Assembly: GCA_903915735.1 (NCBI GenBank)
Contig: CAIWUA010000053.1
Coordinates: forward strand, 1 to 38,624
Origin: Candidatus Adlerbacteria bacterium
GTDB taxonomy: Bacteria; Patescibacteriota; Minisyncoccia; Phycocordibacterales; SBAW01
Direction: 5' to 3'
DNA: 38,624 bases
Shown: positions 7,440 to 26,308 of the stretch, one piece after another
Layout: every line of letters begins with the position of its first letter
Numbering within the stretch: the first letter of the stretch is position 1
Translations under genes and position numbers: made by a program
The notes under the pieces: generated by a model
The model's input: the letters and a program-made list of their open reading frames with translations, nothing else
Told to the model about the DNA's origin: nothing
The model's database searches: none

Positions 7440-7441
7440 GT

Positions 7442-9174: not shown

Positions 9175-9794
9175 CTTTTGCCGGTCAAATTTTGCAGGGC
9201 AAAACCTTGGGCCGCGTGCTATTTAACGCGCAGGTGGCACGGTATGCTCCGCAACTTGCGGGTCGCGTGCTTGACTTGGCGGGAGGCGGCAGCTATGAGG
9301 CGTTGTTGCCGACCGGGTTTGAGGTAGTGCGCACCAACGTGGTACCGGACAAAGGAGTGCCCGTCGACTTTAATAAGCCGCTCCCATACGCAGACGACTC
9401 GTTTGATTTCGTATTGCTTTTTAACGCGCTCTATATTGCCGAAGACCCGCCCGCACTCATGCGCGAAATCCGGCGTGTCTTGCGGTCAGGAGGTCACGTG
9501 CTTATCGCCTCGCCCTTTCTTGCCAACGAAATGCGCGAGCCGCACGACTATGTGCGCTTTACCAGTGAGGGGCTTTTGCGCCTGCTGCACGGCGCACGGT
9601 TTACTCGTATTGAGTTGACCCCGTATGGTGAGCGTTTTAGCACCGCGGCTAACCTCTTACACGACGTGTGGCTCTTCCCGCTCTTGCGGTTGCCTATCTA
9701 TGCGTTGGCCTGTGCACTTGATACCATCATCCCGCACAAGGTACATACCCTGCATCCGGCCCCACTCGGCTGGTTTTGCGTGGCAGAAAAATAA
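9165..9794 (+). CDS. Class I SAM-dependent methyltransferase
   Basis: 209 aa. Motif I VLDLAGGG, and a post-I region SFDFVLLFNALYIAEDPPALMREIRRVLRSGGHVLI (Methyltransf_11-like). Confidence 0.7.
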   Translation: MALTFAGQILQGKTLGRVLFNAQVARYAPQLAGRVLDLAGGGSYEALLPTGFEVVRTNVVPDKGVPVDFNKPLPYADDSFDFVLLFNALYIAEDPPALMREIRRVLRSGGHVLIASPFLANEMREPHDYVRFTSEGLLRLLHGARFTRIELTPYGERFSTAANLLHDVWLFPLLRLPIYALACALDTIIPHKVHTLHPAPLGWFCVAEK

Positions 9795-9795
9795 T

Positions 9796-10917
9796 ATGGA
9801 CTCTAAAAAACCTATCCTGATATTTGCCGTCAACGACCTGTTGGTTGGGGGCGTGCAGAGGTTATATATAGACCTTTGTAAGCAAGGGTTCCCCGAGTAC
9901 GAGGTGCACTTGGTGACACTGTTTAAATTTCCTAGCAAACACGAGTGGTTTGATGCGGTGCCAAGCCAGGTGGTCGTGCACCAGTTTAATTTTAAAAATT
10001 TTAGGGACATGAGTGAGTGGGTAAGACTTGCGCGCTTGTTGCGGCGGCTGGGGCCCGCAGTAATTGTGTCGAGTCTCTTTTTTAGTAATACCGTGACCCG
10101 TGTGCTTGGGTTTTGTATGCGTATTCCGGTTATTGCTATCGAGCACAATACCTACACCGGCAAGACGCCAAACCAGCAACGGGTCGATCGACTGTTGGCA
10201 CACGCCACCTACCGCATAGTTGCGGTCTCTAAAACGGTGCTTGAGTTTACCGCACGGCAAGAACGCATACCTAAAGAAAAGTTTGTGCTTATACACAATG
10301 GGGTCGACCTGGCGGCGCTCGACACGGCTGCACGCGCCGCTGATCCGGCGGCTACCCGTGCGGCAATCGGACTTTCGTCGCAACAGCGGTTAGTAGTTGC
10401 GGTGGGGAGACTCACGGAGCAAAAAAATCCCGAAGCGCTTATTAAAGGATTTATAGACTTCCACACCGCCCACCCCGAGTATGTACTTGCGTTGGCGGGC
10501 CAAGGCAAGTTGCAGGAGTCGCTCAAAGAGCTCATTACCACACACGGTGCGGGCGGGTATATCAAGCTGCTCGGTGCGCGCAACGACGTGGCCGCGCTGT
10601 GCCGCGCGAGCGATTTTTTTGTTTCGACCTCGCACATCGAGGGGTTTGGATTGGCGCACGCCGAGGCCTTGCGGTGCGGTATCCCGGTGCTTACCACCAA
10701 GACCGCCGGTCCCGACGAGATGATTATCGAGGGGGAGAACGGGCTCTTTTTGCAGGATGGGACGCCAGAGGCCGTTGCTAGGGGCCTCGAGCGTATGACC
10801 ACCACAACCTTTAGTGCTCCCGAGCATATTGCCGCCTCGGTCGAACGGTTTTCTATCATAAAGGCCGCGGCCGCCTACCGCGCGCTTATTGCACAAACGA
10901 TCAATCGTCATGCCTAA
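9796..10917 (+). CDS. GT4-family glycosyltransferase
   Basis: ATG at 9796 (MDSKKPILIFAVNDLLVGGVQR); the longer ORF from 9625 overlaps the previous gene. STSHIEGFGLAHAEALRCGIPVLTTKTAGPDEMI. Confidence 0.8.
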   Translation: MDSKKPILIFAVNDLLVGGVQRLYIDLCKQGFPEYEVHLVTLFKFPSKHEWFDAVPSQVVVHQFNFKNFRDMSEWVRLARLLRRLGPAVIVSSLFFSNTVTRVLGFCMRIPVIAIEHNTYTGKTPNQQRVDRLLAHATYRIVAVSKTVLEFTARQERIPKEKFVLIHNGVDLAALDTAARAADPAATRAAIGLSSQQRLVVAVGRLTEQKNPEALIKGFIDFHTAHPEYVLALAGQGKLQESLKELITTHGAGGYIKLLGARNDVAALCRASDFFVSTSHIEGFGLAHAEALRCGIPVLTTKTAGPDEMIIEGENGLFLQDGTPEAVARGLERMTTTTFSAPEHIAASVERFSIIKAAAAYRALIAQTINRHA

Positions 10918-12046
10918 AAAACCAACAATAGCGCTCATGAGTTATGCGATGGACGGTCGCCCCGGTATGGGTACAGCGCTGTATACGCGCAAACTTATCG
11001 AGCAACTGCTGCAAGACGATCGTTTTGAGTGGTGCCTAGTGCATTTTGATAAAGTTGATGACCCGCTCTACGCCAACGTGCGCGAAATTATCATGCCGCA
11101 GGTGCGGCTCCCGTTTGCAACCCGTTTTGTCCGGACGCTGCTCTTTTTTTGGCGGTACCACCACGAATCGTTTGATGTTATCCACTGGTTTCAGCCGCGG
11201 CTGTACCCGTTTTTTTGGTTGGCGCCTGCGCGACACATCGTGGTGACCGCCCACGGAGCGGGGGATATTACCGCGCTGGGAGAGTTTCCTTTATCGCGGA
11301 GGATGTTTAACGCGGTGATGAAGTATGGCAACCGTTTTATAGCGGCGGTTATCGCGGTGTCAGAGTTTGGCAAAGAGGAGATAGTCGAGCACTACCACGT
11401 GCCGGCCTCAAAAGTATTTGTAACTTACAACGGCGGGAGCGAAGGCTATACCCCTCTTGCTAAAGATGAGGCGCGGCGTCGCATGAGCGCGCAGTACGGC
11501 ATATCGACGCCCTTTATCCTCGATGTGTCGCGGCTCGAGCCGCACAAAAATGTTGCTATGTTGGTCGAGGCCTACGAGTTGCTGCGGCACCAGCACCCGG
11601 TGTCGCACCAGCTGGTGGTGGCGGGCCGCAAAGGCTATGAGGCCGAGCGCACCCTCGAGCTCGCACAGCGCTCGGCCTACTCGGCTGATATCCGCTTTTT
11701 AAACTACGTTGCCCCCGAGGATTTAAACGCGCTCTATGCGGCGGCCGATCTGTTTGTCTTCCCGTCGCTTAACGAGGGGTTTGGCCTGCCGCTCGTAGAG
11801 GCTTTTGCCTCGGGGACGCCGGTTATCACCTCTACAGTAACTGCCTTGCCCGAGGTGTCCGGTGATGCGGCAGTGCTGGTTGACCCTACCAGCAAAGCGG
11901 CCCTTACCGAGGCCATGTATCGGGTCCTAAGCGACAAGTCCCTGTACGCCCAACTGGTAGAGCGCGGTCTTGCTCGGGCAAAAGAGTTTACCTGGCAAAA
12001 GACCGCGCGCGCGACCGCGGACATCTATCGTATACTGCTCACATGA
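10910..12046 (+). CDS. GT4-family glycosyltransferase
   Basis: ATG at 10910 (MPKKPTIALMSYAM). FPSLNEGFGLPLVEAFASGTPVITSTVTALPEV. Confidence 0.8.
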   Translation: MPKKPTIALMSYAMDGRPGMGTALYTRKLIEQLLQDDRFEWCLVHFDKVDDPLYANVREIIMPQVRLPFATRFVRTLLFFWRYHHESFDVIHWFQPRLYPFFWLAPARHIVVTAHGAGDITALGEFPLSRRMFNAVMKYGNRFIAAVIAVSEFGKEEIVEHYHVPASKVFVTYNGGSEGYTPLAKDEARRRMSAQYGISTPFILDVSRLEPHKNVAMLVEAYELLRHQHPVSHQLVVAGRKGYEAERTLELAQRSAYSADIRFLNYVAPEDLNALYAAADLFVFPSLNEGFGLPLVEAFASGTPVITSTVTALPEVSGDAAVLVDPTSKAALTEAMYRVLSDKSLYAQLVERGLARAKEFTWQKTARATADIYRILLT

Positions 12047-12660
12047 CAAGCTGGAACCCGCATTTTTTTGAGCAGTCGGTCAGGCGTATCTTTACGCCCG
12101 GGCGGAGTATCCTCGACATCGGCGGCGGCCTGCGGGTCGACCCCGCGCGCAACAATCGGTACGATGCCGGCATGGCGTGGCTCGTGCCGCTCCTTAGCCA
12201 AGTCGACTACAAGATAATCGACAAGGTGCCCGACTACAACCCCGACCTGGTGGGTGACATCCACCAGTTGCCGCTTGCCGACGGCTCGTTTGATGCGGTG
12301 GTATGCATATCGGTGCTCGAGCATGTCGAAGACCCTCAGCGCGCAGTGCGCGAGATACATCGCGTGCTCAAACCGGGCGGTCAGGCGCTCTTGTATGCAC
12401 CGTTTTTGTACTACTATCATGCCGAGCACGGCTACTATGCCGACTACTGGCGCTTTACCAAAGATGCGTGGGCGCATCTGTGCCGGGAGTTTTCGTCAAT
12501 CGAGCTCGTGCCTGTGCGCGGTGCGTTTGAAACGTGGATAAAAATAAGCCCGCTCGGCAGGAGCAAGCTCTTGTGCAAGGCCGCACACGAGGTCGATCTT
12601 TTGTTTGGCAAGATGAGCAGCAACCAAGTGAGCGGCTACAATGTCTTTTTAATCAAATGA
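12043..12660 (+). CDS. Class I SAM-dependent methyltransferase
   Basis: 205 aa. ILDIGGGL and SFDAVVCISVLEHVEDPQRAVREIHRVLKPGGQALL. ATGA overlap with the upstream stop. Confidence 0.75.
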   Translation: MTSWNPHFFEQSVRRIFTPGRSILDIGGGLRVDPARNNRYDAGMAWLVPLLSQVDYKIIDKVPDYNPDLVGDIHQLPLADGSFDAVVCISVLEHVEDPQRAVREIHRVLKPGGQALLYAPFLYYYHAEHGYYADYWRFTKDAWAHLCREFSSIELVPVRGAFETWIKISPLGRSKLLCKAAHEVDLLFGKMSSNQVSGYNVFLIK

Positions 12661-13766
12661 AGCTGCTATACCTTACCCACAGCCGCATACCGACCCAAAA
12701 GGCTCACGGGCTGCAGGTCATGGTCATGTGCGAGGCGTTTGCCGCTGCGGGCGCCGAGGTTTCGTTAGTAGTGCCGGACAAGCGCAACTTTACGGGGGAG
12801 GATCCTTTTGCCTACTACGGCGTTACTAAAAACTTTTCTATCACGCGTTTGCCTATCAGCGACTTTGGGAGCCGGTGGCAAATGTTTAATGCGCTCTTTT
12901 TTTGGCTCGATGTGTGGTCGTTTGCTCGCGCGCTGCGCCGCTGTAGCGCCGTGCACCGAAGCGACGTGCTGTATACGCGCGATTACCCGCTGCTCTTTGC
13001 CCTGCCGCGCGCACGAGCGGTTGTACTCGAGCTCCACAGTATCCCTAAACGGGGGTGGCTTTTCAATCGGGCGCTTGCACGGACCACGCACGTGGTTGCT
13101 ATTACGCAAGCGCTCAAAGATGACCTGGTCGCCTTGGGTGTCGACCCAAACAAAATAACCGTCGCGCCCGACGGCGTTAACGTGCGCCTGTTTGAGCACC
13201 AGATTATGCAACAAGAAGCCAGGCAGCGGTTAGGGTTGCCGCACGAAGGTGCGTTGGCTTTGTATGTAGGCGCGCTCGGTGGCTGGAAGGGCACCGAAAC
13301 CTTGGTAGCCGCGGCCGAAGGGCTTGCCGAGCCGCAGGTGGCGCTGGTTGGTGCCGATGCGGCCGAGGTACCCGTGTTGTCAAAAAAATATCCGTACGCG
13401 CACTTTGTTGCGTACCTGCCGTATCGCGAGTTGCCGCGTGTCCTTGCGGCTGCCGATTTGTTAGTGCTCCCCAATACGGCGCGACAAGAGATCTCGGCGC
13501 GGTACACCTCGCCGCTTAAGCTGTTTGCCTATATGGCCTCGGGCAAGCCTATTATCTGTTCAGACGTGCCAAGTATACGCGAGGTGCTCGATGACTCCTC
13601 GGCACTATTTTTTAAAAGCGACGACCCGGCCGATCTCCGCGAAAAGTTGCGTTACGCGCTTGCGCATAAAGACGAGATGGCCGCACGCGCCAAGCGCGCG
13701 CTCGAGCTGGTGCAACACTACACGTGGGACAAACGCGCCGAACAGATACTTACTTTTTTGGGCTAA
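12657..13766 (+). CDS. GT4-family glycosyltransferase
   Basis: ATG at 12657 (MKLLYLTHSRIPTQKAHGLQVM) in an ATGA overlap. The longer ORF from 12534 lies inside the previous gene. Confidence 0.7.
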   Translation: MKLLYLTHSRIPTQKAHGLQVMVMCEAFAAAGAEVSLVVPDKRNFTGEDPFAYYGVTKNFSITRLPISDFGSRWQMFNALFFWLDVWSFARALRRCSAVHRSDVLYTRDYPLLFALPRARAVVLELHSIPKRGWLFNRALARTTHVVAITQALKDDLVALGVDPNKITVAPDGVNVRLFEHQIMQQEARQRLGLPHEGALALYVGALGGWKGTETLVAAAEGLAEPQVALVGADAAEVPVLSKKYPYAHFVAYLPYRELPRVLAAADLLVLPNTARQEISARYTSPLKLFAYMASGKPIICSDVPSIREVLDDSSALFFKSDDPADLREKLRYALAHKDEMAARAKRALELVQHYTWDKRAEQILTFLG

Positions 13767-14853
13767 GCGCGGCGAGGTCATCCAGCAGCAGGCGAGCGCT
13801 GTTGCGGTACTCTAACTCATGCGCACGCACAGGCGCATGGGCCGCGAGCGCGGCACGGGTGGCGGGGTCTGTTAAGGTCTGCATTTTTTTAATCAAGTCG
13901 GCACCATCGCCGTTTTTAAAGGTCATTCCTGCAGATCCCGCCACAAAGGCAGCGCCGGTGCCTTCGGTGGCAAGCACCGGTGCGCCGCAGGCGAGCGCCT
14001 CGGCAATAGTGCGACCAAACGGCTCTACCCATCGGCACGGATGTATAAAAACATCTGCGTGTTGATAAAAAGCCGCTAACGCATCGCCGCTTTGCCATCC
14101 GTAGCAGTGCACCTGCTCGTTTGCGGCGGCGCGCGCGGCCGACTCCATCGGCCCCGTGCCGACGATATGCACTTTCACCTGGCGCGGCAGGAGCGACGCC
14201 GCCTGTAAAAGAAGGTCGGTCCCTTTGTCGGTACTCAGGCGCCCGGCGTATACAAAATGCGTTTCGTCCGGATGTTTTATAAACGGCGCCGGCTGTCGCG
14301 ACAACGCCGCAAAAGCCTTGGTGTCGACAAACTCGGGTATCATCAGTGCCCGCGCGTGGTGGTAGCCGTACGACTCGTACACGGCTTGCGTAACAGGGGA
14401 GTCAAAGTACAACCTGTCGAGGTGCCGCATAAGTGCCGCACCAAAAGTCTTTTCCCACAAGCGGCGGCGGAGCACAAACAGTAGTGCTCGCGGTCGGTGC
14501 AGCCCCATCCCCGGCAGGTAATTGTTGAGATAGGCAACCGCTGCCCCGGTGCCACCGCCGCGTTTGTACAAGCCGCCGGCCCACAAAAGTGCGTGCCCGT
14601 AGAGCAGATGCACGTCTGCCTGCGACTCGCGCATAAGCGCGGCCACCTGCCGTTGTTGCGCAAAAAAGCCGCCGCTGCAAGGGCGCACCAACACCGGGCA
14701 AGGGGCCACGGCGGCGTCGATGCTCGCCTCGAGGGTGATAAGGCGCACAGTGTGGCCGGCCTCGACCAAACTTGCGAGCATGAGCGCAAGCGTTTGGTGC
14801 GAGCCGCCGCCCGAGAGCGGGTTGTAGCGGAGACTATAGAGGTCGATATGCAT
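13750..14853 (-). CDS. GT4-family glycosyltransferase
   Basis: 367 aa. HPCRWVEPFGRTIAEALACGAPVLATEGTGA. Its 3' end overlaps the convergent GT gene by 17 nt. Confidence 0.75.
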   Translation of the reverse strand: MHIDLYSLRYNPLSGGGSHQTLALMLASLVEAGHTVRLITLEASIDAAVAPCPVLVRPCSGGFFAQQRQVAALMRESQADVHLLYGHALLWAGGLYKRGGGTGAAVAYLNNYLPGMGLHRPRALLFVLRRRLWEKTFGAALMRHLDRLYFDSPVTQAVYESYGYHHARALMIPEFVDTKAFAALSRQPAPFIKHPDETHFVYAGRLSTDKGTDLLLQAASLLPRQVKVHIVGTGPMESAARAAANEQVHCYGWQSGDALAAFYQHADVFIHPCRWVEPFGRTIAEALACGAPVLATEGTGAAFVAGSAGMTFKNGDGADLIKKMQTLTDPATRAALAAHAPVRAHELEYRNSARLLLDDLAALSPKK

Positions 14854-14856
14854 GAA

Positions 14857-16350
14857 TTATTGTTTGACCAATCCGGCGGCCGGGCCAAGGAGCGCGCAAA
14901 ACGACTCGAGGTTGTGCACCATCTCTTTTTTGTCGGCACCTACCTCCCACAGGCGATGCAGCGAGACGTTTGCCGAGCGCTCAAGCAGCGCCGCCACATA
15001 CTGCTCGAGCTCGTGCTCGTCAAAATTAAAACGCTCTACTTGTTGTTGCACCAACAAAGGGAGCTCGTCTATACGCTCGCACTTTTTGACCATCGACACG
15101 CGGTTAAAGTAGACATCGCCAAACGTGATGACCGGCTTTTTAAACAGGAGCGCCTCCCAGCCGGCGGTACCGGTGATGGTGCACAGTAGTCTTGACTCCT
15201 TAATAAGCCGGTAGTTGTCGAGGTTGGGGTGCACCAAACGCACATTGGGGATTTTTTTGAGCGTTTGGTAGTACGCGCGCGTTCGGTATCCGACCATGGC
15301 CGGGTGCTCTTTGACATAGAGTTTAAAGTGCAGCGGCAACGAACGGGCTATTTGTTTAATCAGGTTAAGCTGGTCGGTCCAGTAGGGCGCCAACAGCAAG
15401 GTGGCCATCTCGGGGTCGAGGTGGAGCGGGTAGTAGGCATAGGCCTCGCCCTCGACAGGCGTGTCGTACAAGTCGTGGTACCCGCGCATAAGGCGCGCCT
15501 TGCGCTGCACGCGGTCGATAAAAAATCCCCACGGCGCTTCGTCGGTGTAGTCGCGCGCTTTGCCGGCTAGTGCTCGCGACAGTACCACCGCAAACCACGA
15601 TGCCGAGCGCCACAGCGACGATGGCAAAAACCAGCGCAGTGCTCGCGCGCGGCTACCGGAGCGCTTAAACTGCTCCATGACATACAGGTACGGCCGCGGC
15701 GCGTCGCGATATTTTTTTATATACGTACGGGCAGCCTCTTCGTTGCCGGTCGCACCAGTGCGCAGTTGTGCAAAACGTTCGTCGACAAAACTAAAAGTGC
15801 GATAGTCCTCGCTCAGCGCATACCCGCCGTCGATGCGTGTCTCGGCACCTACCAAAACGCGGATACCCTTCTTTTTAGCAATGTGATACAAGAGCATGTT
15901 GCCGAGCGAGGATACGACCGGCAGGTATACAAAGTCGGGGCGCTCGGTATCGAGCATGCTGATAATGGCGCGCGCGGTCACCTGCAACATCCGTGCCATC
16001 TCTTCGTGCGTATAAGGGGCCTCGTCGTGGGGGTACTCGCGCACGGCCTGCCCGTGGCGGATAATGCGGTCGACCGCTAAGTAGGGCCACAAGTAGGGGA
16101 GACCGTAGTCTTTTTCTATCTGTGCTATATACGCCCAGTCAACTTTTTCGGTAAACGAGGCGTTGTGCAGGTCTTCGTCTAACAGCAGGGTGCCGTAGGC
16201 GACCTCTTTTTGCTCGCGCAGGTAGGCAAGGTTGTGCCGCAGGTACACATAGCCGCACGCCTCGGTCACGCCCCACTGCCGCATGAGGGTCTGTACTATT
16301 TGGTGGGCAACCGGGGTAAATCGCCGTTGAAACACAAAGCAAGCTTTCAT
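14857..16350 (-). CDS. Capsule polysaccharide biosynthesis protein, KpsC/KpsS-like (Capsule_synth family)
   Basis: 497 aa, soluble. Motifs YYPLHLDPE, LYVKEHP and TITGTAGWEALLFKKPVITFG match the pattern of KpsS/KpsC-type ulosonic-acid transferases. Confidence 0.6.
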   Translation of the reverse strand: MKACFVFQRRFTPVAHQIVQTLMRQWGVTEACGYVYLRHNLAYLREQKEVAYGTLLLDEDLHNASFTEKVDWAYIAQIEKDYGLPYLWPYLAVDRIIRHGQAVREYPHDEAPYTHEEMARMLQVTARAIISMLDTERPDFVYLPVVSSLGNMLLYHIAKKKGIRVLVGAETRIDGGYALSEDYRTFSFVDERFAQLRTGATGNEEAARTYIKKYRDAPRPYLYVMEQFKRSGSRARALRWFLPSSLWRSASWFAVVLSRALAGKARDYTDEAPWGFFIDRVQRKARLMRGYHDLYDTPVEGEAYAYYPLHLDPEMATLLLAPYWTDQLNLIKQIARSLPLHFKLYVKEHPAMVGYRTRAYYQTLKKIPNVRLVHPNLDNYRLIKESRLLCTITGTAGWEALLFKKPVITFGDVYFNRVSMVKKCERIDELPLLVQQQVERFNFDEHELEQYVAALLERSANVSLHRLWEVGADKKEMVHNLESFCALLGPAAGLVKQ

Positions 16351-16378
16351 AGTTTTATGAGGTGTGAGAAAGATAAGG

Positions 16379-16385
16379 TATTATA
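16379..16385. promoter_or_regulatory. Overlapping -10 boxes of a divergent promoter (TATTAT on +, TATAAT on -)
   Basis: tattata at 16379-16385 in the 70-bp divergent intergenic region 16351-16420. The reverse complement of 16380-16385 is a perfect TATAAT. Confidence 0.35.
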
Positions 16386-16420
16386 CGGCGGATAGTAGCG
16401 TGTGACCTTTAGAACAGTCA

Positions 16421-18223
16421 ATGGACATCCCTCTCTTCTCATCGGCATCAAGAGCGAGCATGCGCCGGACGCATGAGCTCTTTCGGCGCGCCTTTGGGCC
16501 CTATGTCCCGCATACCATTGCTATTGTGCTTTTGGCGGCGTTAGGGAGCGCCATGGAAGGGCTTGGCATCAGCGCTATTGTGCCGGCCTTTTCGTTTGCC
16601 GGAGGACAGGCCGGCACCGCCGCCGATGCCATCTCCCAAATCATACAACACCTCTTCTCGTTTATAGGTTTGCCGTACTCGTTTAGGTTTTTGCTGTTTT
16701 TTATGGGCGTGCTCTTTGTGCTAAGGACGGTGTTGGTGCTGGTCATACAGTATGTCACGGCGCGCATCGTCTATGGCTACGAGCGCGACCTGCGGACGAC
16801 ACTGTTTGGCAACATGGTCCGCGCGGGGTGGCCATTCCTCTCGCAGCAAAAGGTCGGGCAGCTCGATCAGCTGCTTATTACCAACACGACCAACACGTCG
16901 CAGTTTTTTAACTTTATCTCTACGCTGGCACTCATCGGCACCAAAGCCATCGCCTATATCATCATCGCGATAAATCTCGCGCCTACCGTAGCGGTTGCCA
17001 GTTTGCTGGCCGGCCTCGTGGCCTTTGTGGGGCTGCGGCCGCTTTTTAGCGCCGCCAAGGCCGCCTCGGTGCGGGTCGAGCGGCTTAACCGCGGTATGGC
17101 CCACTTTGTCAGCCAGCACGTCGGCGGCATGAAGACCATTAAAGCCGCGGCGGTCGAGGAGCCGGTCGAGCGTACTATTGGCGAGTTTTTTGAGAGTATC
17201 CGCTCGCTGTTTGTGCGCATGATGGTGTTGCGCGGCACCACCGAAACGTTGGTGCGCCTGTTTGGGCTTGGGTTCGTTGGTATTGTGTTTGTGGTTATGT
17301 ACCAGACACCCGGGTTTAACATCGCGGCCTTTGCGGTGATCGTGTATGTAATCAATCAAATCTTTTCGCAGGTGCAGGCGATGCAGGTACAGATGCACGC
17401 GCTCAGCACGATGGTGCCGTACATTGGCAGCGTGTTTGCCCAAGTAGATGACGCGCGCGCCAACCGCGAGGAGACCGGCGGCGGCCCCATGCCAACGCAG
17501 TGGGAGACGCTTGCGTTTGACCACGTATCGTTTACCTATCCGGGGCGCGAGCGCACGCTCGAGGACGCCTCGTTTGAGATTAAGCGCGGCGGTATTGTGG
17601 GCATTATCGGCCCGTCCGGAGCGGGCAAAACCACCCTGGTCGACCTGCTCATGCGCTTGTTTGACCCGCACAAGGGCGAGATTGTGCTCGATGGAGTTGC
17701 GGCGCGCACCGTGTCACGCACCGCGTGGCGCACGCAGGTTGGCTATGTGGCCCAAGACTCGTTTTTGCTTAACGACACCATTGCTCGCAATATTGCCTTT
17801 TATCATGCGTGCTCGCATGAGGAAATAGTTGCCGCCGCCAAAGCCGCCAGCGTGCACGAGTTTATCGAGTCGTTGCCGCAGGGGTACGAGACCGTCATAG
17901 GCGACCGCGGAGTGTTGGTGTCCGGCGGACAGCGCCAACGCATCGCGCTGGCGCGCGCACTGGTACGCATGCCCGAGCTGCTTATCCTCGACGAGGCCAC
18001 GAGCTCGCTCGATAGCGAGACCGAGGCCGCCGTGCACGAGGCGATAGATACCTTGCGCGGCAAGACCACTATCATCATCATTGCACACCGTTTGTCGACC
18101 GTTGCGTCGGCCGACGAGTTGCTGGTGGTCGAAAAGGGTCGCATCACCGAGCGTGGCACGCCCGAGGAGCTGTTAAAAAACAAAGACTCCTATTTTGCTA
18201 AAGCGTATGGCCCCCGTGCATAA
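16421..18223 (+). CDS. Fused TMD-NBD ABC exporter (MsbA/PglK/Wzk type)
   Basis: 600 aa with an N-terminal multi-TM domain. Walker A GPSGAGKTT, signature LSGGQRQRIALARAL, Walker B LLILDEATSSLD. An alternative start at M14 (16460) is possible. Confidence 0.85.
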   Translation: MDIPLFSSASRASMRRTHELFRRAFGPYVPHTIAIVLLAALGSAMEGLGISAIVPAFSFAGGQAGTAADAISQIIQHLFSFIGLPYSFRFLLFFMGVLFVLRTVLVLVIQYVTARIVYGYERDLRTTLFGNMVRAGWPFLSQQKVGQLDQLLITNTTNTSQFFNFISTLALIGTKAIAYIIIAINLAPTVAVASLLAGLVAFVGLRPLFSAAKAASVRVERLNRGMAHFVSQHVGGMKTIKAAAVEEPVERTIGEFFESIRSLFVRMMVLRGTTETLVRLFGLGFVGIVFVVMYQTPGFNIAAFAVIVYVINQIFSQVQAMQVQMHALSTMVPYIGSVFAQVDDARANREETGGGPMPTQWETLAFDHVSFTYPGRERTLEDASFEIKRGGIVGIIGPSGAGKTTLVDLLMRLFDPHKGEIVLDGVAARTVSRTAWRTQVGYVAQDSFLLNDTIARNIAFYHACSHEEIVAAAKAASVHEFIESLPQGYETVIGDRGVLVSGGQRQRIALARALVRMPELLILDEATSSLDSETEAAVHEAIDTLRGKTTIIIIAHRLSTVASADELLVVEKGRITERGTPEELLKNKDSYFAKAYGPRA

Positions 18224-19652
18224 ACGCAAAAAATTATTTTTGGTTGGCTGGGCAAGCCTCTTGTCGGAGCAAATTTATTCGGTACACAAACTCGCTAAGG
18301 AGCACGACATTCTTTATTGGGTGCGGATCAAGGACGTGGTCCCATTTGAGGAAAAGGATTTTCCTAACACCCTATTTCATGACTACCGCGACGCGCTTGC
18401 CGCACGGCCCGCGCCCGGTATCGATGCGTCCGGTTTTGGCATACCCTCAGCGAAAGAGTTCGGCGCCTTGGCGGATGTCGAAGCAGAGTTTATGGTCATG
18501 ACCGAAAAGTGGTATGAGAGCTGGTCTATCAATCGCCGGAAGGAACTTTTTTATGAGATGGTGCGCTACTGGGGCGGGGTGCTGGATATGTTGCGGCCCG
18601 ACGCTATTGTCATGACCGACATACCGCACGAAATGTACAGTTTTGTGCTCTATCATTTGGCAAAACGTCGCGGCATCGGGACTATCATGTTTGAAAACGT
18701 GCTGAGGTACGACCGGCTGCTCATGTACCGTGATTATAATGACGGCAATCCGGCGCTCTCGATGGTAGCAAAAATCGGCTACCCCCACCGTGAGCTCGCC
18801 AGCTTGCCTTTGGACATACAAGAGCAGTATCTCGAACAGACCGGACAAAAAGAGCCCACGCCAAAATATATGGGTACTTTCAAACAGGAGCATACCGGGT
18901 GGGGAAAGCTGCGTCGTACGACAAAAGCCCTGGTGCCGTTTATCAAAGACGGGAGCATCATCGAGCGGGGAGTCACGAGGCTTTTTAAGCTGTTAAAGCC
19001 TTCGATACGGAGCGAGTTTGCGCGCTACGTCGGCGTGGCGCAGTATGGTGTGCCCTTCGTGTACGTGCCACTCCATTATCAGCCCGAACGCACCTCAAGC
19101 CCGCAAGGGGGAGTCTTTTCGGACCAGATGCTTTTGGTTAAGACGCTTGCTGCCTCGTTGCCCGCAGGATGGAGGCTGTTGGTAAAAGAGCATCCCAATC
19201 AGTGGCTGCCGCACGGCGACGATTATACGCCGTATCGCTACCCCGGGTTTTATGAAGAGCTTGCCAAGATACCCGGCGTGATCCTTGTCCCGCTTTCGAC
19301 CAGCACGTTCGAGCTTATCGAACATGCGCAGGCGGTGTCGACCATCAGCGGCATCCCGGCATGGGAGGGACTGTTGCGCGGCAAGCCGGCGATCCTGTTT
19401 GGTTGTTCGTGGTTTATGCACGCGCCCGGTGTGTACCGGGTGGACAGCGTAGCGTCCTGTCGCCAGGCGCTAGCAGAGATAGCCGCCGCGGGCGGCCCAT
19501 CGGCCCAGTCGATGGTCGATTATCTTGGTGCGCTCGGGGACGCGAGCGTGCAAGGCTACCTCGACGTCTATGGTCGCGCGTGGGCGCCGTACTCGCCCGA
19601 GGAGTATGCGCGCAATCTGTCCGGCGCGATAAGCGAGGCGCTTGCGACATGA
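18207..19652 (+). CDS. Capsule polysaccharide biosynthesis protein, KpsC/KpsS-like (Capsule_synth family), paralog of 14857-16350
   Basis: ATG at 18207; the track start at 18195 is a TTG. Motifs YVPLHYQPE, LLVKEHPNQ and TISGIPAWEGLLRGKPAILFG. Overlaps the ABC gene's 3' end. Confidence 0.6.
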   Translation: MAPVHKRKKLFLVGWASLLSEQIYSVHKLAKEHDILYWVRIKDVVPFEEKDFPNTLFHDYRDALAARPAPGIDASGFGIPSAKEFGALADVEAEFMVMTEKWYESWSINRRKELFYEMVRYWGGVLDMLRPDAIVMTDIPHEMYSFVLYHLAKRRGIGTIMFENVLRYDRLLMYRDYNDGNPALSMVAKIGYPHRELASLPLDIQEQYLEQTGQKEPTPKYMGTFKQEHTGWGKLRRTTKALVPFIKDGSIIERGVTRLFKLLKPSIRSEFARYVGVAQYGVPFVYVPLHYQPERTSSPQGGVFSDQMLLVKTLAASLPAGWRLLVKEHPNQWLPHGDDYTPYRYPGFYEELAKIPGVILVPLSTSTFELIEHAQAVSTISGIPAWEGLLRGKPAILFGCSWFMHAPGVYRVDSVASCRQALAEIAAAGGPSAQSMVDYLGALGDASVQGYLDVYGRAWAPYSPEEYARNLSGAISEALAT

Positions 19653-20407
19653 AAGTAAAAACTCTTTTTACCATGGGTTGGGGTTGGGCTGTGCGCTACA
19701 CGCTCAAGCGTGCTCGGTTTAAACTCGGATTCTTGTGGTCAAAGATAATCGGCCGAAGGTATTGGGTGGTTGCTGTTGGCGGCACCAAAGTAAAATTGAG
19801 CTTTAGTACGCCCTACCACGAGCGGCTCGGCTCTTTTTTGCACCGTGGCTTGCACGAAAAAAAGTTGCTCGAGTGGTGGGCAAGCGAGGCTCGCGACAAA
19901 CGGGTGGTATATGACGTCGGCGGCTTTAACGGCGTCTATGGGATTGTGGCGGCCACAATAAATCCGGCGGCCGTCGTGCACATCTTCGAGCCGGACCCGG
20001 TCAACATCACCCACATCGAGGAAAATGTTCGCCTCAATGGCGTACGCAATTGCGTGGTCGAGCGAAAGGCAGTCGGGGACGAAGACGGATTTCTTTTGTT
20101 TGCGGGCGACGGCAGCACGGGCGGCAGGTTGTCGCCGCAAGGCACCTTGCGCGTGCCGGTGGTGCGACTCGATTCATACGAGGCGCCCGACCTAGTAAAG
20201 ATAGATGTCGAGGGCGGGGAGTGTGCCGTCTTGCGCGGGGCGCAACAAGCATTGCAACGTGCGCCTTCGATGTTGCTTGAGGTCGGCCCTGCAACGCCTT
20301 TGGCCGAATTAAAAACGCTTCTTTTGCCGCTGGGGTACCACTTGCCCGAGCAGGTGCCTCCTGGCAACTACATAAGCCAAAAAGGCACCCTCGTGTTTGC
20401 CGATTAG
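19649..20407 (+). CDS. FkbM-family SAM-dependent methyltransferase
   Basis: ATG at 19649 in an ATGA overlap with the upstream stop. VYDVGGFNGVYG and LVKIDVEGGECAVL are typical of FkbM/Methyltransf_21. Confidence 0.75.
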   Translation: MKVKTLFTMGWGWAVRYTLKRARFKLGFLWSKIIGRRYWVVAVGGTKVKLSFSTPYHERLGSFLHRGLHEKKLLEWWASEARDKRVVYDVGGFNGVYGIVAATINPAAVVHIFEPDPVNITHIEENVRLNGVRNCVVERKAVGDEDGFLLFAGDGSTGGRLSPQGTLRVPVVRLDSYEAPDLVKIDVEGGECAVLRGAQQALQRAPSMLLEVGPATPLAELKTLLLPLGYHLPEQVPPGNYISQKGTLVFAD

Positions 20408-20413
20408 TAGGTA

Positions 20414-20426
20414 GGGGTCAGACACC
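20414..20426. repeat. Left 13-mer GGGGTCAGACACC (near-palindrome), preceded by GTAGGTAG
   Basis: Read directly. 12 of 13 positions match the reverse complement of 21099-21111; only the central base differs. Confidence 0.7.
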
Positions 20427-20444
20427 TCAACATTAAAATAGTTG

Positions 20445-20453
20445 TGGCATAAT
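20445..20453 (+). promoter_or_regulatory. Extended -10 TGGCATAAT, 6 nt upstream of the RAYT ATG
   Basis: tgg at 20445-20447 and cataat at 20448-20453, then taatac, then the ATG at 20460. Confidence 0.4.
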
Positions 20454-20459
20454 TAATAC

Positions 20460-21083
20460 ATGGCTCGGCAGCCTCGCATCGATTTAGGTGATTATGTATA
20501 TCACGTCATCAACCGTTCCAACGGCCGTGCACAGATATTTTTCAACGATGAGGATTATCAGGACTTCGAGCATCTCCTTAACGAAATGGCGGAAACTTAC
20601 GAGATGCGAATATTGGGTTACGTCCTTATGCCCAACCATTGGCATCTCCTCTTGTATCCTCGACAAGACAAAGATCTCGCCAAAGCTCTACAATGGCTTG
20701 GCACTACCCACGCCCGCCGGCACCATTCTCGCAAAGGAACCGTCGGTGGCGGGCATTTATATCAAGGGCGCTATAAATCCTTTCTGATTCAAGAAGATCT
20801 ACACCTACTTACTGTACTGAAATATATTGAACGTAATCCTGTACGGGCCAAACTCTGTACGAGGACCGAGTTGTGGTCATGGGGGAGCGCCTATCGCCGA
20901 AAGAACAAACTCAAGAAGCCCAAACTTTCCGCACTGCCAATTGATTTACCGCGTGACTACACAGAATGGGTCAACATACCGGAGTCAGCCGAGCAGCTAA
21001 AATCCATCCGACAGTCGGTCAATAGGGGTGTACCATATGGGGAGGAGAGGTGGATAAAAAGATGGAATAATATTAAACAATAG
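20460..21083 (+). CDS. IS200-like Y1 (HUH) transposase / REP-associated tyrosine transposase (RAYT)
   Basis: 207 aa. HUH motif in MPNHWHLLLYP and the catalytic-Tyr region LKYIERNPVRAKL. N-terminus MARQPRIDLGDYVYHVINRSNGRAQIF is typical of this family. Confidence 0.8.
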   Translation: MARQPRIDLGDYVYHVINRSNGRAQIFFNDEDYQDFEHLLNEMAETYEMRILGYVLMPNHWHLLLYPRQDKDLAKALQWLGTTHARRHHSRKGTVGGGHLYQGRYKSFLIQEDLHLLTVLKYIERNPVRAKLCTRTELWSWGSAYRRKNKLKKPKLSALPIDLPRDYTEWVNIPESAEQLKSIRQSVNRGVPYGEERWIKRWNNIKQ

Positions 21084-21098
21084 TTTATGACTTTTTGT

Positions 21099-21111
21099 GG
21101 TGTCAGACCCC
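21099..21111. repeat. Right 13-mer GGTGTCAGACCCC, the inverted partner of 20414-20426
   Basis: Read directly. It starts 16 nt after the RAYT stop. Confidence 0.7.
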
Positions 21112-21117
21112 AGACCC
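21104..21117 (+). repeat. Tandem 7-mer CAGACCC x2 overlapping the right 13-mer
   Basis: cagaccc at 21104-21110 and cagaccc at 21111-21117, read directly. Confidence 0.7.
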
Positions 21118-21133
21118 CCAGCACGCTTTATAT

Positions 21134-21397
21134 ATGAATACACTCATTTCTTTAATTCTTGGGATTGTTGGTATTTTATGTATTATTTATTTTCGCCGAG
21201 TGGCACATTTTTGTGCCGCATTCATGGCAAAACGATTTCGTGAAATTTATGGCAGGTACGCAACGGAGCGGGGTTGGGATAATCCAAATACTCAGTTTAA
21301 TAAATACTTTTACCGAGGTATCGTTTTATTTTTTGGATTTTTCTTACTAATTATGTCCTTCCACGAGTTCTTTGGAACGTTATATCTTAATCAATAG
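21134..21397 (+). CDS. Small (87-aa) two-TM membrane protein, function unknown
   Basis: ATG at 21134 (MNTLISLILGIVGILCIIYF...) and a second hydrophobic span GIVLFFGFFLLIMSF. The track ORF from 21095 starts at a TTG inside the repeat. AT-rich. Confidence 0.45.
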   Translation: MNTLISLILGIVGILCIIYFRRVAHFCAAFMAKRFREIYGRYATERGWDNPNTQFNKYFYRGIVLFFGFFLLIMSFHEFFGTLYLNQ

Positions 21398-21414
21398 TCA
21401 AAGCAAAAATAATT

Positions 21415-21585
21415 ATGGCGTTTTTTAATTACTCCAACCCAATTTACTTCATAGCCGCAGCTTCATTTCTAGTAGCGGTGTTGTTGATAGTGTATAAAAA
21501 AGAAAAGATTTCTCCTCGGTCATGGTCCATGATTGTTTTTATAACGATTATCCTCATTGGGTCTTTACTTCTCAAATTTCACTAA
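21415..21585 (+). CDS. Small (56-aa) two-TM membrane protein, function unknown (below the ORF-track cutoff)
   Basis: Hand translation: MAFFNYSNPIYFIAAASFLVAVLLIVYKKEKISPRSWSMIVFITIILIGSLLLKFH*. Two hydrophobic helices are separated by a basic loop. Confidence 0.35.
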   Translation: MAFFNYSNPIYFIAAASFLVAVLLIVYKKEKISPRSWSMIVFITIILIGSLLLKFH

Positions 21586-21735
21586 AAACAGAGCCTAAAA
21601 ACACCACTCAGTCCCTACTCCTCCTACGACCGCAACGGCAACCGCGTCTTTGCAGGCACAGGTACCCCAACCCAACCCTTAATAAAGAGGTAATTTACCT
21701 TTGCAACTAAAGCTCTTCTCAGGGGGTTATAGCTA

Positions 21736-21744
21736 TGGTATAGT
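21736..21744 (+). promoter_or_regulatory. Extended -10 TGGTATAGT, 19 nt upstream of the pseB ATG
   Basis: tgg at 21736-21738 and tatagt at 21739-21744. It is the first strong promoter-like motif after the AT-rich island. Confidence 0.45.
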
Positions 21745-21763
21745 CACGCGCGTCTAACAACGT

Positions 21764-22759
21764 ATGTATACCCTCAAAAATAAGGTTATTTTGATCACCG
21801 GCGGGACAGGCTCCTTTGGCAAAGCCTGTGTTAAAAAAATCCTCGATGAGCACGATCCTAAGGCTATCCGCATCTACAGCCGCGACGAGCTTAAGCAGTG
21901 GGAGATGCAGCGCGAGTTTAACTCGGATAAACTGCGCTTTTTGATAGGCGATGTGCGCGACGCCGAGCGTCTTACCCGCGCCTGCGAGGGGGTCGACGTT
22001 GTCATACACGCGGCTGCGCTTAAGCAGGTGCCCGCATGCGAGTACAACCCGATGGAGGCGGTTAAGACCAACATCAACGGCGCGATGAACGTTATTAACG
22101 CGGCGCTCGACAACAATGTCGACAAAGTGATTGCCCTGTCGACCGACAAGGCCGCCGGACCGGTCAATATTTATGGCGCGACCAAGCTTGCCTCAGATAG
22201 GCTCTTTATCCAATCCAACTCGTACCGCGGCCCTATGCGCGACACGCAGTTTTCGGTGGTGCGCTACGGCAACGTGATGGGCAGCCGCGGCAGCGTTATA
22301 CCGCTCTTTCGCAAACAGCGCGAAACCGGCACGGTCACCATTACCGACAAGCGCATGACGCGCTTTTGGATCACGCTCCCGCAAGCGGTCGACTTTGTGC
22401 TGTCGAGCTTGGCGGTTATGCAGGGCGGCGAGCTGTTTGTCCCCAAGATCCCCAGCATGACCATGCTCGAGCTGGCCAAGACCATTGCGCCCAAAGCAAA
22501 AATAAAAATGATCGGCATCCGCCCCGGCGAAAAGCTGCACGAGTGGCTTATCTCGCCGGGCGAGGCGCGCACCGGTCTTGAGATGAAGGATCGCTACATC
22601 ATTCTTTCAGAGTCGCAGGACGGGTGGAGCCACGATATGAGCCGCTACCCGGCCGCACGCAAGGTTAAAGAGGGGTTTGAGTACAACAGCCGCGACAACA
22701 AGAGCTACCTGAGCACCAAGGCTATGTTGGCGCTTCTCAACGAGCTCGATTTGGCCTAA
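21764..22759 (+). CDS. pseB: UDP-N-acetylglucosamine 4,6-dehydratase (inverting), PseB/FlaA1 type
   Basis: 331 aa. ILITGGTGSFGK, IYSRDELKQWEMQ, HAAALKQVPACEYNPMEAVKTNI, LSTDKA and YGATKL correspond closely to PseB/FlaA1 proteins. Confidence 0.85.
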   Translation: MYTLKNKVILITGGTGSFGKACVKKILDEHDPKAIRIYSRDELKQWEMQREFNSDKLRFLIGDVRDAERLTRACEGVDVVIHAAALKQVPACEYNPMEAVKTNINGAMNVINAALDNNVDKVIALSTDKAAGPVNIYGATKLASDRLFIQSNSYRGPMRDTQFSVVRYGNVMGSRGSVIPLFRKQRETGTVTITDKRMTRFWITLPQAVDFVLSSLAVMQGGELFVPKIPSMTMLELAKTIAPKAKIKMIGIRPGEKLHEWLISPGEARTGLEMKDRYIILSESQDGWSHDMSRYPAARKVKEGFEYNSRDNKSYLSTKAMLALLNELDLA

Positions 22760-22770: not shown

Positions 22771-23832
22771 ATGACCTTCGCCAAAAGCTTTAAGATAGGG
22801 GACCGAAAAGTGGGCGAGGGCGCACCGACGTATTTTATCGCCGAGATAGGCGCTAACTTTGACGGCAACCTAGAGCTTGCCAAAAAGTACGCGCTCGAGG
22901 CTAAAAAAATCGGCGCCGATTGTGCCAAGATACAAACCTTTACCGCCAAAAAAATAGTCTCGCGCGAGGCCTTTGCAAAGATGCAGTTAAAGGGCGTGCA
23001 CGGCAGCTGGAAGCGCCCCGTAGACGAGGTGTTTAAAGAGGTCGAGTTTCCTCACGCATGGCACAAAGAGTTTTTTGAGTACTGTTGGAGCATCGGCATT
23101 ACGCCGTCGACCGCCGCTTATGACAAAGAGGCCGTCGACTTGGTCGACAAGCTTGGTATCGAATTTTATAAAATAGGCTCGGGTGATATCACGTGGCTCG
23201 AGATGGTCGAGTATGTGGCGCGCAAGGGCAAGCCGGTAGTGCTGGCGACCGGCGCGGCGACGCTTGCCGAGGTAGACGAGGCCGTGCGCACGATCGAAAA
23301 GACCGGCAACAAAAATCTTGCACTCCTGCAGTGCATCACCAACTATCCGTCAAAGTTTGAGAGTGCCAACATTAACGTGCTCAACACCTACCGCGACGCG
23401 TTTGGCGCGGTGGTTGGCTACTCGGACCACACGCCGGGCGACACGGTGGTGCTTGGCTCGGTGGCGATAGGCGCCAAAGTGATAGAGAAGCATATTACCT
23501 TTGACCGCGCTAACAAAGGCCCCGACCACCCGCACTCGATGACATTTGATGAGTTTGGCGCCATGATCCGCCGCACTCGCGAGCTCGAAAAGGCGATGGG
23601 CACCGGTGTTAAAGAGGTGGTGGCCGAGGAGGCCGAGACGGTCATCGTCCAGCGCCGCGGGCTCACGGCCGCTGCACGTATTACTAAGGGCCAAAAATTT
23701 ACCGCTAAAAATGTGGCGGTCCTGCGCCCCGCGCTTGGCATCCCGCCTAAATTTAAAAGCGCCATTGTCGGCAAGAGCGCCAAAAAGACTCTTGCCCAGG
23801 GCGCCCCTATCCACTGGGAGGATATTGCTTAA
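22771..23832 (+). CDS. Nonulosonic acid synthase, NeuB/PseI/LegI/SpsE family, with a C-terminal SAF domain
   Basis: 353 aa. YFIAEIGANFDGNLELAKK, KIGSGDITW, GYSDHT, IEKHITFD. C-terminal SAF-like region RRGLTAAARITKGQKFTAKNVAVLRP. Confidence 0.85.
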   Translation: MTFAKSFKIGDRKVGEGAPTYFIAEIGANFDGNLELAKKYALEAKKIGADCAKIQTFTAKKIVSREAFAKMQLKGVHGSWKRPVDEVFKEVEFPHAWHKEFFEYCWSIGITPSTAAYDKEAVDLVDKLGIEFYKIGSGDITWLEMVEYVARKGKPVVLATGAATLAEVDEAVRTIEKTGNKNLALLQCITNYPSKFESANINVLNTYRDAFGAVVGYSDHTPGDTVVLGSVAIGAKVIEKHITFDRANKGPDHPHSMTFDEFGAMIRRTRELEKAMGTGVKEVVAEEAETVIVQRRGLTAAARITKGQKFTAKNVAVLRPALGIPPKFKSAIVGKSAKKTLAQGAPIHWEDIA

Positions 23833-24941: not shown

Positions 24942-24943
24942 GC
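24932..24943. repeat. 12-bp perfect palindrome GCTTAGCTAAGC holding the stop codons of two convergent genes
   Basis: Read directly. Both genes end CTT AGC TAA (-LS*) on their own strand. An adjacent TTTTTTAAAAAA palindrome lies at 24944-24955. Confidence 0.9.
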
Positions 24944-25245: not shown

Positions 25246-25254
25246 ATTGTGGCT

Positions 25255-25263
25255 AGTATATCA
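25255..25263 (-). promoter_or_regulatory. Extended -10 TGATATACT (minus strand), 9 nt upstream of the ATG at 25245
   Basis: The reverse complement of 25255-25263 (agtatatca) is tgatatact. It is the same 9-mer as the box at 26358-26366. Confidence 0.4.
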
Positions 25264-25271
25264 AAAAGAAA

Positions 25272-25299: not shown

Positions 25300-25304
25300 A
25301 TATT

Positions 25305-26267: not shown

Positions 26268-26308
26268 TGGATACCCTTCAGATATTTGTAGAACGAGGCT
26301 GGTAATAT

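Follow-up and report, generated by a model that had tools for sequence, protein, structure and literature searches.

Which sugar acid does a pair of Capsule_synth (PF05159) proteins transfer when their genes lie beside a fused ABC exporter and genes for nonulosonic acid (NulO) synthesis? This question is raised by a 38,624-bp contig of a Candidatus Adlerbacteria bacterium (CAIWUA010000053.1), a member of the candidate phyla radiation (CPR, Patescibacteria). We analysed the contig in its entirety, hereafter the window, and statements on missing genes refer to these 38.6 kb. CPR bacteria account for much of bacterial diversity and live attached to other cells, and to our knowledge hardly any of the chemistry of their surface is known. 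An earlier note on this DNA had proposed that the two proteins, here called CapA and CapB, use a CMP-activated NulO in place of CMP-linked 3-deoxy-D-manno-octulosonate (Kdo), and that, together with the exporter and a capping methyltransferase, they may form an undescribed export route in a cell that probably lacks an outer membrane. According to our analysis, CMP-NulO is indeed the most likely donor, given the kinship of both proteins to the pseudaminic acid (Pse) transferase KpsS1 and the NulO genes in their neighbourhood. We consider it probable that CapA and CapB are CMP-NulO transferases acting on a lipid-linked glycan, and that this glycan is flipped by a PglK/MsbA-type exporter.

CapA and CapB are paralogous Capsule_synth proteins carrying an HxxxE motif

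CapA is paired with a glycosyltransferase family 4 (GT4) gene on the minus strand, and CapB lies on the plus strand between the exporter and an FkbM-family methyltransferase, as the earlier note had described (Table 1). The same holds for its description of the two proteins as soluble Capsule_synth paralogs: both score at or above the PF05159 gathering score, no transmembrane (TM) segment is predicted in either, and they share 26 % identity over 322 aa (E 2e-21). Taken alone, the PF05159 match of CapB is borderline (20.2 bits vs a cutoff of 20); it is backed by an hhalign comparison with KpsS1 (98.2 % probability). Among the matches listed, a precomputed PF05159 match exists for 119 of 120 CapA homologs, and for most CapB homologs. 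The superfamily as a whole is large: a CapA profile retrieved 10,931 cluster representatives with E <= 1e-3, and tightening the threshold to E <= 1e-30 left 1,867. The closest CapA homologs with an organism name belong to Parcubacteria/CPR (Kaiserbacteria, Portnoybacteria, Giovannonibacteria, Harrisonbacteria, Niyogibacteria), the best genome match being a Kaiserbacteria metagenome-assembled genome with 59 % identity.

CapA carries the motifs PLH310-L-D-P-E314, KEH349-P350 and GTAGWE399ALL..KPVITFG, and CapB carries PLH294-Y-Q-P-E298, KEH333-P334 and E391. The consensus at the nucleophile motif reads PLHxEPE in the CapA family and PLHYQPE in the CapB family. The HP motif (KEHP), which aligns with VHP of KpsC, varies little or not at all within either family, and GxEALL..KP..FG is likewise kept in both. 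These motifs are conserved from CPR members to relatives in Clostridia, Vibrio, Nitrosopumilus and SAR11. A sequence search of the PDB returned KpsC as the sole relative, matched over the C-terminal Rossmann half only and with 26 bits for CapA and 17 bits for CapB. Because the alignment of a profile of 20 CapA homologs with T. dismutans KpsC-C (6mgd) puts H310/E314 on Q/D165 of QXXXD, both families carry HxxxE, embedded in PLHxxPE, in place of the QXXXD that is invariant in GT107 and GT99 and not present in CapA/CapB. The aspartate of QXXXD is the proven nucleophile of the retaining beta-Kdo transferases (PMC10148158).

In the AlphaFold2 models, which are confident for both proteins (pLDDT 85.8 for CapA and 87.4 for CapB), an alpha/beta domain at the N-terminus is followed by ~100 aa of helical subdomain and then by the Rossmann domain, an order that fits the layout reported for KpsC and WbbB (PMC12887879). 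The helical subdomains are basic, with a pI of 10.5 in CapA and 9.7 in CapB. In comparison with KpsC/KpsS (GT107) and WbbB (GT99), CapA and CapB share the Pfam superfamily, the HP motif, a carboxylate where the nucleophile is placed and the association with ABC-dependent export, and their modelled domain order, helical subdomain included, would fit a modified GT-B layout. They differ in that the sequence similarity is limited to ~75-125 residues (26-39 bits), in having the Glu of HxxxE instead of the Asp of QXXXD, in the lack of a Kdo pathway or a split KpsMT/Wzm-Wzt transporter in the window, and in their predicted donor, a nine-carbon NulO.

CapA and CapB are closer to the pseudaminic acid transferase KpsS1 than to KpsC

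KpsS1, known from A. baumannii loci of the KL2 type, has been shown biochemically to be a retaining Pse (Pse5Ac7Ac) transferase and is the founder of GT118 (Walklett 2024, as cited in PMC12887879). We obtained its sequence by a tblastn search of CapA against a plasmid collection, which led to two Acinetobacter baumannii chromosomes filed as plasmids. Their psaA-F / wzx / kpsS / wzy capsule locus (L043) encodes a 480-aa KpsS with Y131-E132, matching the description of KpsS1 in PMC12887879, in which Glu132 of this YE motif is proposed as general base. KpsS1 carries PIHFHPE and STAGYEALLLGKPV motifs. BLASTP aligned it, in the C-terminal domain, with CapA at 39 % identity over 132 aa (E 6e-25) and with CapB at 27 % over 136 aa (E 1e-14), and hhalign gave a probability of 99.4 % over 334 columns for CapA and of 98.2 % over 280 columns for CapB. 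Because both methods return strong matches to KpsS1, as opposed to only 26 and 17 bits for KpsC, CapA and CapB are, as judged from their sequences, far closer to KpsS1 (GT118) than to KpsC-type Kdo transferases.

The likeness to KpsS1 extends to protein length (480 aa vs 497/485), PF05159 membership, P[LI]HxxPE in the place of QXXXD, the conserved His of the HP position, the STAGxEALLxGKP motif and the PseB/PseC/PseI/PseF module adjoining the gene. KpsS1 differs in having HK where CapA/CapB have HP, and in belonging to the Wzx/Wzy capsule pathway of a diderm, whereas CapA/CapB are encoded in CPR bacteria with a fused ABC exporter and usually as two paralogs. For the PF05159 proteins Gtr59, KpsS1 and KpsS2, Kenyon et al. 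(2015, PMC4487303) noted that they are always encoded beside NulO modules and predicted that they transfer NulO with retention. The Gtr59-like genes of O108/O165 were sought in E. coli genomes by a DNA search with the Vibrio homolog, which found nothing.

A further precedent is offered by Tanf_01245 / TFUB4_00887 (BFO_1060 family), the Pse and legionaminic acid (Leg) transferases of Tannerella forsythia protein O-glycosylation (PMC5420450). Like CapA and CapB, these proteins are soluble (~445 aa) and contain an HP motif, and their genes lie just downstream of CMP-NulO genes with a methyltransferase nearby; they transfer a terminal NulO onto a lipid-linked glycan destined for S-layer proteins (PMC5420450). 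They differ in that the NCBIfam match to the BFO_1060 family is weak (29.7 bits vs a cutoff of 200) and in that the authors called the enzymes TagB-like (PMC5420450).

The predicted donor is a pseudaminic-type sugar acid

NeuB-family synthases make nine-carbon acids. A synthase of this family and a cytidylyltransferase are encoded 2.4 kb and 7.2 kb downstream, respectively, where the earlier note had seen them. The dehydratase preceding the synthase scores above the PseB equivalog cutoff and is 54 % identical to A. baumannii PsaA. The remaining enzymes are less sharply assigned: the synthase scores 300 bits on NeuB and 285 bits on PseI models, below the equivalog cutoffs, and is 33 % identical to PsaF/PseI, and the DegT aminotransferase scores 201 bits on both LegC and PseC models, again below the cutoffs. 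Between the synthase and the aminotransferase lie genes for a DUF218 protein and a 170-aa protein, which occur in the same order in the window, L002, L048 and L078; DUF218 adjoins NeuB in L044 and L047 as well. The two proteins may replace the PseG and PseH steps (UDP-sugar hydrolase and N-acyltransferase). Pfam scans of the 35 main open reading frames (ORFs) of the window detected no KdsA, no ABC2_membrane/KpsM and no KpsT-type gene, so that the claimed lack of Kdo synthesis and KpsM/KpsT-type genes holds for the window.

The transferase-exporter-NulO arrangement recurs across CPR loci

Searching species-representative genomes, we found 37 loci with CapA relatives; with L040-L042 added, 33 of the fetched loci were CPR-type. 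Among these, 22 contained at least one NulO marker within 10 kb (DegT accepted), nine a fused ABC exporter and seven a CapB gene, the exporter being present in all seven of the latter. A metagenome scan with a CapB profile returned more than 576 relatives, from which 80 loci were kept and the 40 loci of at least 12 kb were counted. An ABC exporter stood directly upstream of CapB on the same strand in 34/40, and PseB, NeuB or CTP_transf_3 was present in 37/40, with two or more of them in 23/40. The co-occurrence of these genes, which the earlier note had proposed to check, is thus pronounced; and because the ABC and NulO arrangement recurs in dozens of loci, it is not a peculiarity of this genome. 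About 20 of the 40 long loci encode two PF05159 proteins, either CapA plus CapB or tandem CapB copies.

Two loci reproduce the order of the window: L002 contains CapA, ABC, CapB, PseB, NeuB, DUF218, the 170-aa gene, DegT, CTP_transf_3 and the methyltransferase, and L048 the same series up to CTP_transf_3. In L044, CapA is divergent from ABC-PseB-...-CTP_transf_3-DUF218-NeuB. A GT4 gene follows the CapA homolog in L001, L003 and L040. The methyltransferase at the FkbM position belongs to different families among the related loci. The capping role that the earlier note gave to the FkbM protein, which may act on the NulO or on the glycan, is pure conjecture. Outside CPR bacteria, the relatives in Clostridia, Vibrio and Nitrosopumilus are also encoded beside PseB/DegT/NeuB genes.

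The NulO genes of some loci are duplicated. L042 (Logan SRR2544004 contig, 3315-21087), in which a PseG-PseH fusion of canonical type occurs together with a convergent pair of PF05159 paralogs and a fused ABC exporter, has two NeuB-family synthases, one within a full PseB/C/G-H/I set and the other with SIS, CTP_transf_3, Inositol_P and polysaccharide pyruvyl transferase genes. This arrangement is suggestive of two distinct sugar acids and a separate transferase for each. PseB or NeuB sets are duplicated likewise in L058, L086, L099, L102 and L106.

Single-cell genomes of Pelagibacteraceae (SAR11; L035 9074-12500 and L036 7536-12500) contain one to two tandem PF05159-like genes with PLHxxPE and KEHP motifs. 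Since these genes adjoin a fused ABC exporter, 25 % identical to that of the window, the transferase-exporter pairing may extend beyond CPR bacteria.

Phosphoglycosyltransferase and ligase-like genes of related loci point to a probable polyprenol-linked glycan

The exporter is a single polypeptide with a PF00664 transmembrane domain (~6 TM helices predicted) and a PF00005 nucleotide-binding domain. In this architecture, in its location within a glycan operon without a detected Wzx, and in its expected substrate, a completed lipid-linked glycan (predicted), it resembles PglK, MsbA and HepA. It differs from them in scoring far below each NCBIfam equivalog cutoff (HepA 338 vs 725 bits, MsbA 312 vs 602, PglK 234 vs 1000). 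No Wzx was detected by single-sequence search, which is insensitive, and no Wzx-family Pfam gene is listed in the six Pfam-annotated loci. Following the NulO cluster, the window encodes a Wzy_C-TPR protein with 10 predicted TM segments, homologs of which lie downstream of ABC-CapB in eight metagenomic loci (L062, L063, L068, L070, L084, L085, L087, L106). This protein may act in CPR bacteria as an O-oligosaccharyltransferase or ligase and is a candidate for the final glycan transfer. Homologs of the phosphoglycosyltransferase Bac_transf occur in seven related CPR loci. The seven loci with Bac_transf and the eight with Wzy_C-TPR favour a polyprenol route, in which a PglK-like exporter would flip a glycan carried on polyprenol.

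Proposed pathway and alternative readings

Our sequence comparisons and gene maps show the protein family and its motifs, a closer kinship to KpsS1 than to KpsC and a conserved gene order; from these we infer a scheme for the donor sugar, the catalytic mechanism, the carrier lipid, the exporter substrate and the final acceptor. PseB, DegT, the NeuB-family synthase and CTP_transf_3 would produce a pseudaminic-type 5,7-diamino-tetradeoxy-nonulosonic acid in CMP-activated form, with the DUF218 and 170-aa proteins probably assisting CMP-NulO synthesis. CapA and CapB would be cytoplasmic, peripheral-membrane GT-B enzymes of a KpsS1 (GT118)-like branch of Capsule_synth, binding the CMP-sugar in their C-terminal Rossmann domain through the KEHP histidine and the GWEA glutamate and placing the invariant Glu of PLHxxPE at the position of the nucleophilic aspartate of the retaining Kdo transferases. 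The upstream GT4 array probably builds the acceptor glycan, and the divergent N-terminal domains of CapA and CapB may select two acceptor positions on this GT4-built lipid-linked glycan. PglK is the N-glycan flippase of Campylobacter; in the same fashion, the ABC half-transporter, coupled to CapB, should flip the finished lipid-linked glycan, which the Wzy_C-TPR protein may pass on to a protein or wall acceptor.

Several observations weigh against this scheme. The likeness to KpsS1 is strongest in the donor-binding half, with the first ~130 residues unaligned, and the YE motif is not kept: in the alignments, L143-P144 of CapA and M140-T141 of CapB stand opposite Y131-E132. The exporter is of a generic ABCB type, its PDB matches being generic ABCB transporters and no equivalog cutoff being reached; moreover, the exporter, the Wzy_C-TPR protein and the transferases are linked by co-localisation alone. 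The window contains no PseG or PseH homolog and no priming phosphoglycosyltransferase, the latter being missing from most related loci too. Lastly, the CTP_transf_3 protein reaches 68 bits on KdsB models as against 30 bits on PseF, every score lying below its cutoff, and the activated sugar may therefore not be canonical Pse.

The absent phosphoglycosyltransferase is also what would be expected if the locus were an analogue of the group 2 capsule anchor, in which a KpsS-like paralog primes NulO on a phospholipid, a KpsC-like paralog extends the linker, GT4 enzymes build the polymer, FkbM caps it and the ABC protein exports it. The presence of two paralogs in about half of the long loci, reminiscent of KpsS plus KpsC, the basic helical subdomains, which suit a membrane surface, and the tight linkage of the exporter fit such an anchor as well. 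However, the exporter is a fused ABCB type and not KpsMT, the methyltransferase family is not constant between loci, and the single Pse that KpsS1 transfers goes onto a Wzx/Wzy repeat unit and not onto a lipid (PMC4487303; locus L043). The Bac_transf and Wzy_C-TPR genes of the related CPR loci fit the polyprenol-linked route. Because of these phosphoglycosyltransferase and Wzy_C genes we disfavour a lipid linker and do not follow the earlier note in its KpsS/KpsC-style arrangement: we regard the anchor analogue as unlikely, and its specific form, a Kdo-independent group 2 anchor counterpart in monoderm CPR bacteria, with CapA/CapB priming and extending a NulO linker on phospholipid for MsbA-like export, as quite unlikely. 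The absence of PseG, together with that of NeuC, lends itself to a different explanation, namely that CapA and/or CapB are the missing PseG/NeuC-like nucleotide-sugar hydrolase or 2-epimerase and not transferases. In Foldseek searches of the PDB, both models matched UDP-GlcNAc 2-epimerases (E 1e-8 to 1e-9) above KpsC/WbbB (E ~1e-6), a CapA profile weakly matched the M. jannaschii epimerase (E 0.012), and one homolog gave a faint PF02350 match. All TM-scores were <= 0.48, though, and those to the epimerases were ~0.3; these matches are generic GT-B ones, in which KpsC, WbbB and sialyltransferase-like folds are not separable. Sequence profiles return PF05159 and not PF02350, and the PLHxxPE, KEH and GxEALL motifs are common to KpsS1, a transferase that coexists with PsaD/PseG in the Acinetobacter locus. 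Since this locus and L042, with its PseG-PseH fusion and still two PF05159 paralogs, hold a canonical PseG beside the PF05159 gene, the hydrolase or epimerase role is weakened, and we deem it very unlikely.

CapA and CapB could also be genuine beta-Kdo or octulosonic acid transferases, supplied by the KdsB-like cytidylyltransferase and by genes elsewhere in the genome. The PF05159 match, KpsC as the only sequence relative with a solved structure and the higher KdsB than PseF score of CTP_transf_3 agree with this. Yet HxxxE replaces the invariant QXXXD, no KdsA or KpsMT gene lies in the window, the neighbouring synthase is of the NeuB family, whose products have nine carbons, and the conserved neighbours are NulO and not Kdo genes. 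The CPR members described so far, which are few in number, have a monoderm envelope (PMC8871954); the host of the window is itself a CPR bacterium, in line with the probably outer-membrane-less cell assumed in the earlier note. With QXXXD missing and the neighbourhood given over to NulO genes, the Kdo alternative is weakened and appears highly improbable. Hardly credible, finally, is a role as TagB/TagF-like polyol-phosphate transferases making a teichoic-acid-like polymer for ABC export, with NulO side decoration left to another enzyme. The weak BFO_1060 match, the T. forsythia members of which were first annotated as TagB-like, and an LtaS-type sulfatase gene adjoining CapB in L040 could be read in this way, but neither protein matches PF04464 (TagB/TagF-like), the window contains no CDP-glycerol or CDP-ribitol synthesis gene, and BFO_1060/Tanf_01245 is genetically required for Pse/Leg transfer (PMC5420450).

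In substance, the earlier note was right in its central inference of NulO transfer by the two Capsule_synth proteins, but the principle is already known: given the prediction of Kenyon et al. 2015, the biochemistry of KpsS1 and the T. forsythia precedent, this inference is not new. Of the undescribed route proposed in the earlier note, the ABC-coupled CPR operon is new, whereas the enzyme idea dates from 2015/2024 (PMC4487303, PMC12887879). Our literature search found no paper linking nonulosonic or pseudaminic acids to CPR/Patescibacteria, nor one on this operon layout. What is new is that CPR bacteria hold a large branch of these enzymes, distinguished by an N-terminal domain of its own and usually encoded as two paralogs, and that their genes are tightly coupled in an operon with a fused exporter of the ABCB type where Wzx or KpsMT would otherwise stand. 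The recurrent operon of ABC, KpsS1-like and NulO genes suggests that an acidic sugar of the pseudaminic type is common in the CPR envelope, and its analysis names the enzymes and the exporter to test. The GT118-like NulO transferases gain a large divergent branch with Glu at the position of the Asp nucleophile of the Kdo transferases, while the known principle of NulO transfer by Capsule_synth proteins is unchanged.

Gene map, start sites and insertions

Table 1. Features of the glycan region of the window, with positions, strand and basis of assignment.
Feature	Position	Strand	Basis
Upstream array: 7 GT4 glycosyltransferases, 2 Methyltransf_11, polysaccharide deacetylase, short UDP-Glc-dehydrogenase-like ORF	3629-13766	+	Pfam scans
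GT4 glycosyltransferase	13750-14853	-	PF00534 90 bits; 3 nt downstream of CapA, co-directional
CapA, soluble 497 aa, putative CMP-NulO transferase	14857-16350	-	PF05159 37.0 bits, E 3.4e-9
Divergent intergenic region CapA/ABC, 70 bp	16351-16420		sequence
Fused TMD-NBD (transmembrane and nucleotide-binding domain) ABC exporter (type IV / ABCB-like half-transporter)	16421-18223	+	PF00664 32 bits + PF00005 113 bits
CapB, soluble 485 aa, second putative CMP-NulO transferase	18195-19652	+	PF05159 20.2 bits vs cutoff 20
FkbM-family methyltransferase, 252 aa	19649-20407	+	PF05050; TIGR01444 83 bits
IS200/IS605-type Y1 transposase	20460-21083	+	PF01797 66 bits
PseB, inverting UDP-GlcNAc 4,6-dehydratase	21764-22759	+	TIGR03589 485 bits, cutoff 407.75
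NeuB-family nonulosonic acid synthase with SAF domain	22771-23832	+	PF03102 270 bits
DUF218 protein	23835-24422	+	Pfam scan
170-aa protein, no family match	24429-24941	+	ORF scan
DegT/PseC-type aminotransferase	26375-27589	+	PF01041 280 bits
CTP_transf_3 cytidylyltransferase	27579-28331	+	PF02348 101 bits
Class I methyltransferase, end of NulO cluster, kept in L002	28337-29179	+	ORF scan
Wzy_C (O-antigen ligase / PglL-type) membrane protein, 758 aa, C-terminal TPR repeats	29202-31478	+	PF04932 65 bits + TPR

The CapA start at 16350 is backed by homolog alignment, an MKxCFxxQRRF N-terminus being present in 20/20 sequences; the public gene call is 475 aa long and starts 22 codons downstream (16285-16350). 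For CapB, the public call starts at 18207 and yields 481 aa. The FkbM gene begins at 19649, where an ATGA joins its start to the CapB stop; a longer ORF from 19361 is an artefact. Because the CapB start overlaps the stop of the ABC gene (18195-18223), the sequence suggests that CapB and the exporter are translationally coupled. The gap between CapA and the exporter measures 70 bp, as in the earlier note, if the ABC gene starts at 16421, and 109 bp with the public start at 16460. The divergent promoter claimed for this gap finds less support: it contains one weak sigma-70-like -35/-10 match on the minus strand (16421-16392), and the nine promoter-like sites of the region are not clearly in excess over shuffled sequences (5.1 +/- 2.3). 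On its other side, the GT4-CapA operon is convergent with the upstream array, their 3' ends overlapping by 17 nt (13750-13766).

The IS200-type transposase stands between the FkbM gene and the NulO genes in a low-GC stretch (GC ~0.47). No insertion sequence (IS) element occupies the equivalent site in L002, L003, L047 and L048, of which L002 and L048 have an IS-free gene series. Because PseB directly follows CapB or FkbM in these four loci, the element appears to have been inserted recently, splitting the operon, and has no functional part in the system. The same low-GC stretch (20407-21764) holds a small ORF with two TM segments beside the transposase (21095-21397) and, immediately upstream of PseB, a promoter-like site (21716-21744) whose -10 element is extended.

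The plus-strand NulO cluster is interrupted by two minus-strand genes (24934-26318), one encoding 103 aa and the other ~320-337 aa with ~7 TM segments, neither of which is in Pfam/NCBIfam. In L002, the corresponding gap is shorter than this pair would need. The ORFs at 24429-26318, 31531-32118 and 21095-21397 had no usable match in relaxed scans of Pfam and NCBIfam.

The contig opens (79-3632) with genes for a protein of the DKNYY family, for a coupling ATPase resembling TraG/VirD4 (764-2494) and for an HHH protein that is ComEA-like and has a PKD domain (2400-3632). These genes are not related to the glycan genes and may represent DNA uptake or transfer machinery. Within the upstream array, the GT4 protein encoded at 5723-6595 (290 aa) lacks most of its N-terminal domain, and the UDP-glucose-dehydrogenase-like ORF at 6540-7439 (299 aa) is without its C-terminal domain and part of its NAD domain; the ORFs at 5723-7439 may be decaying genes or frameshifts.

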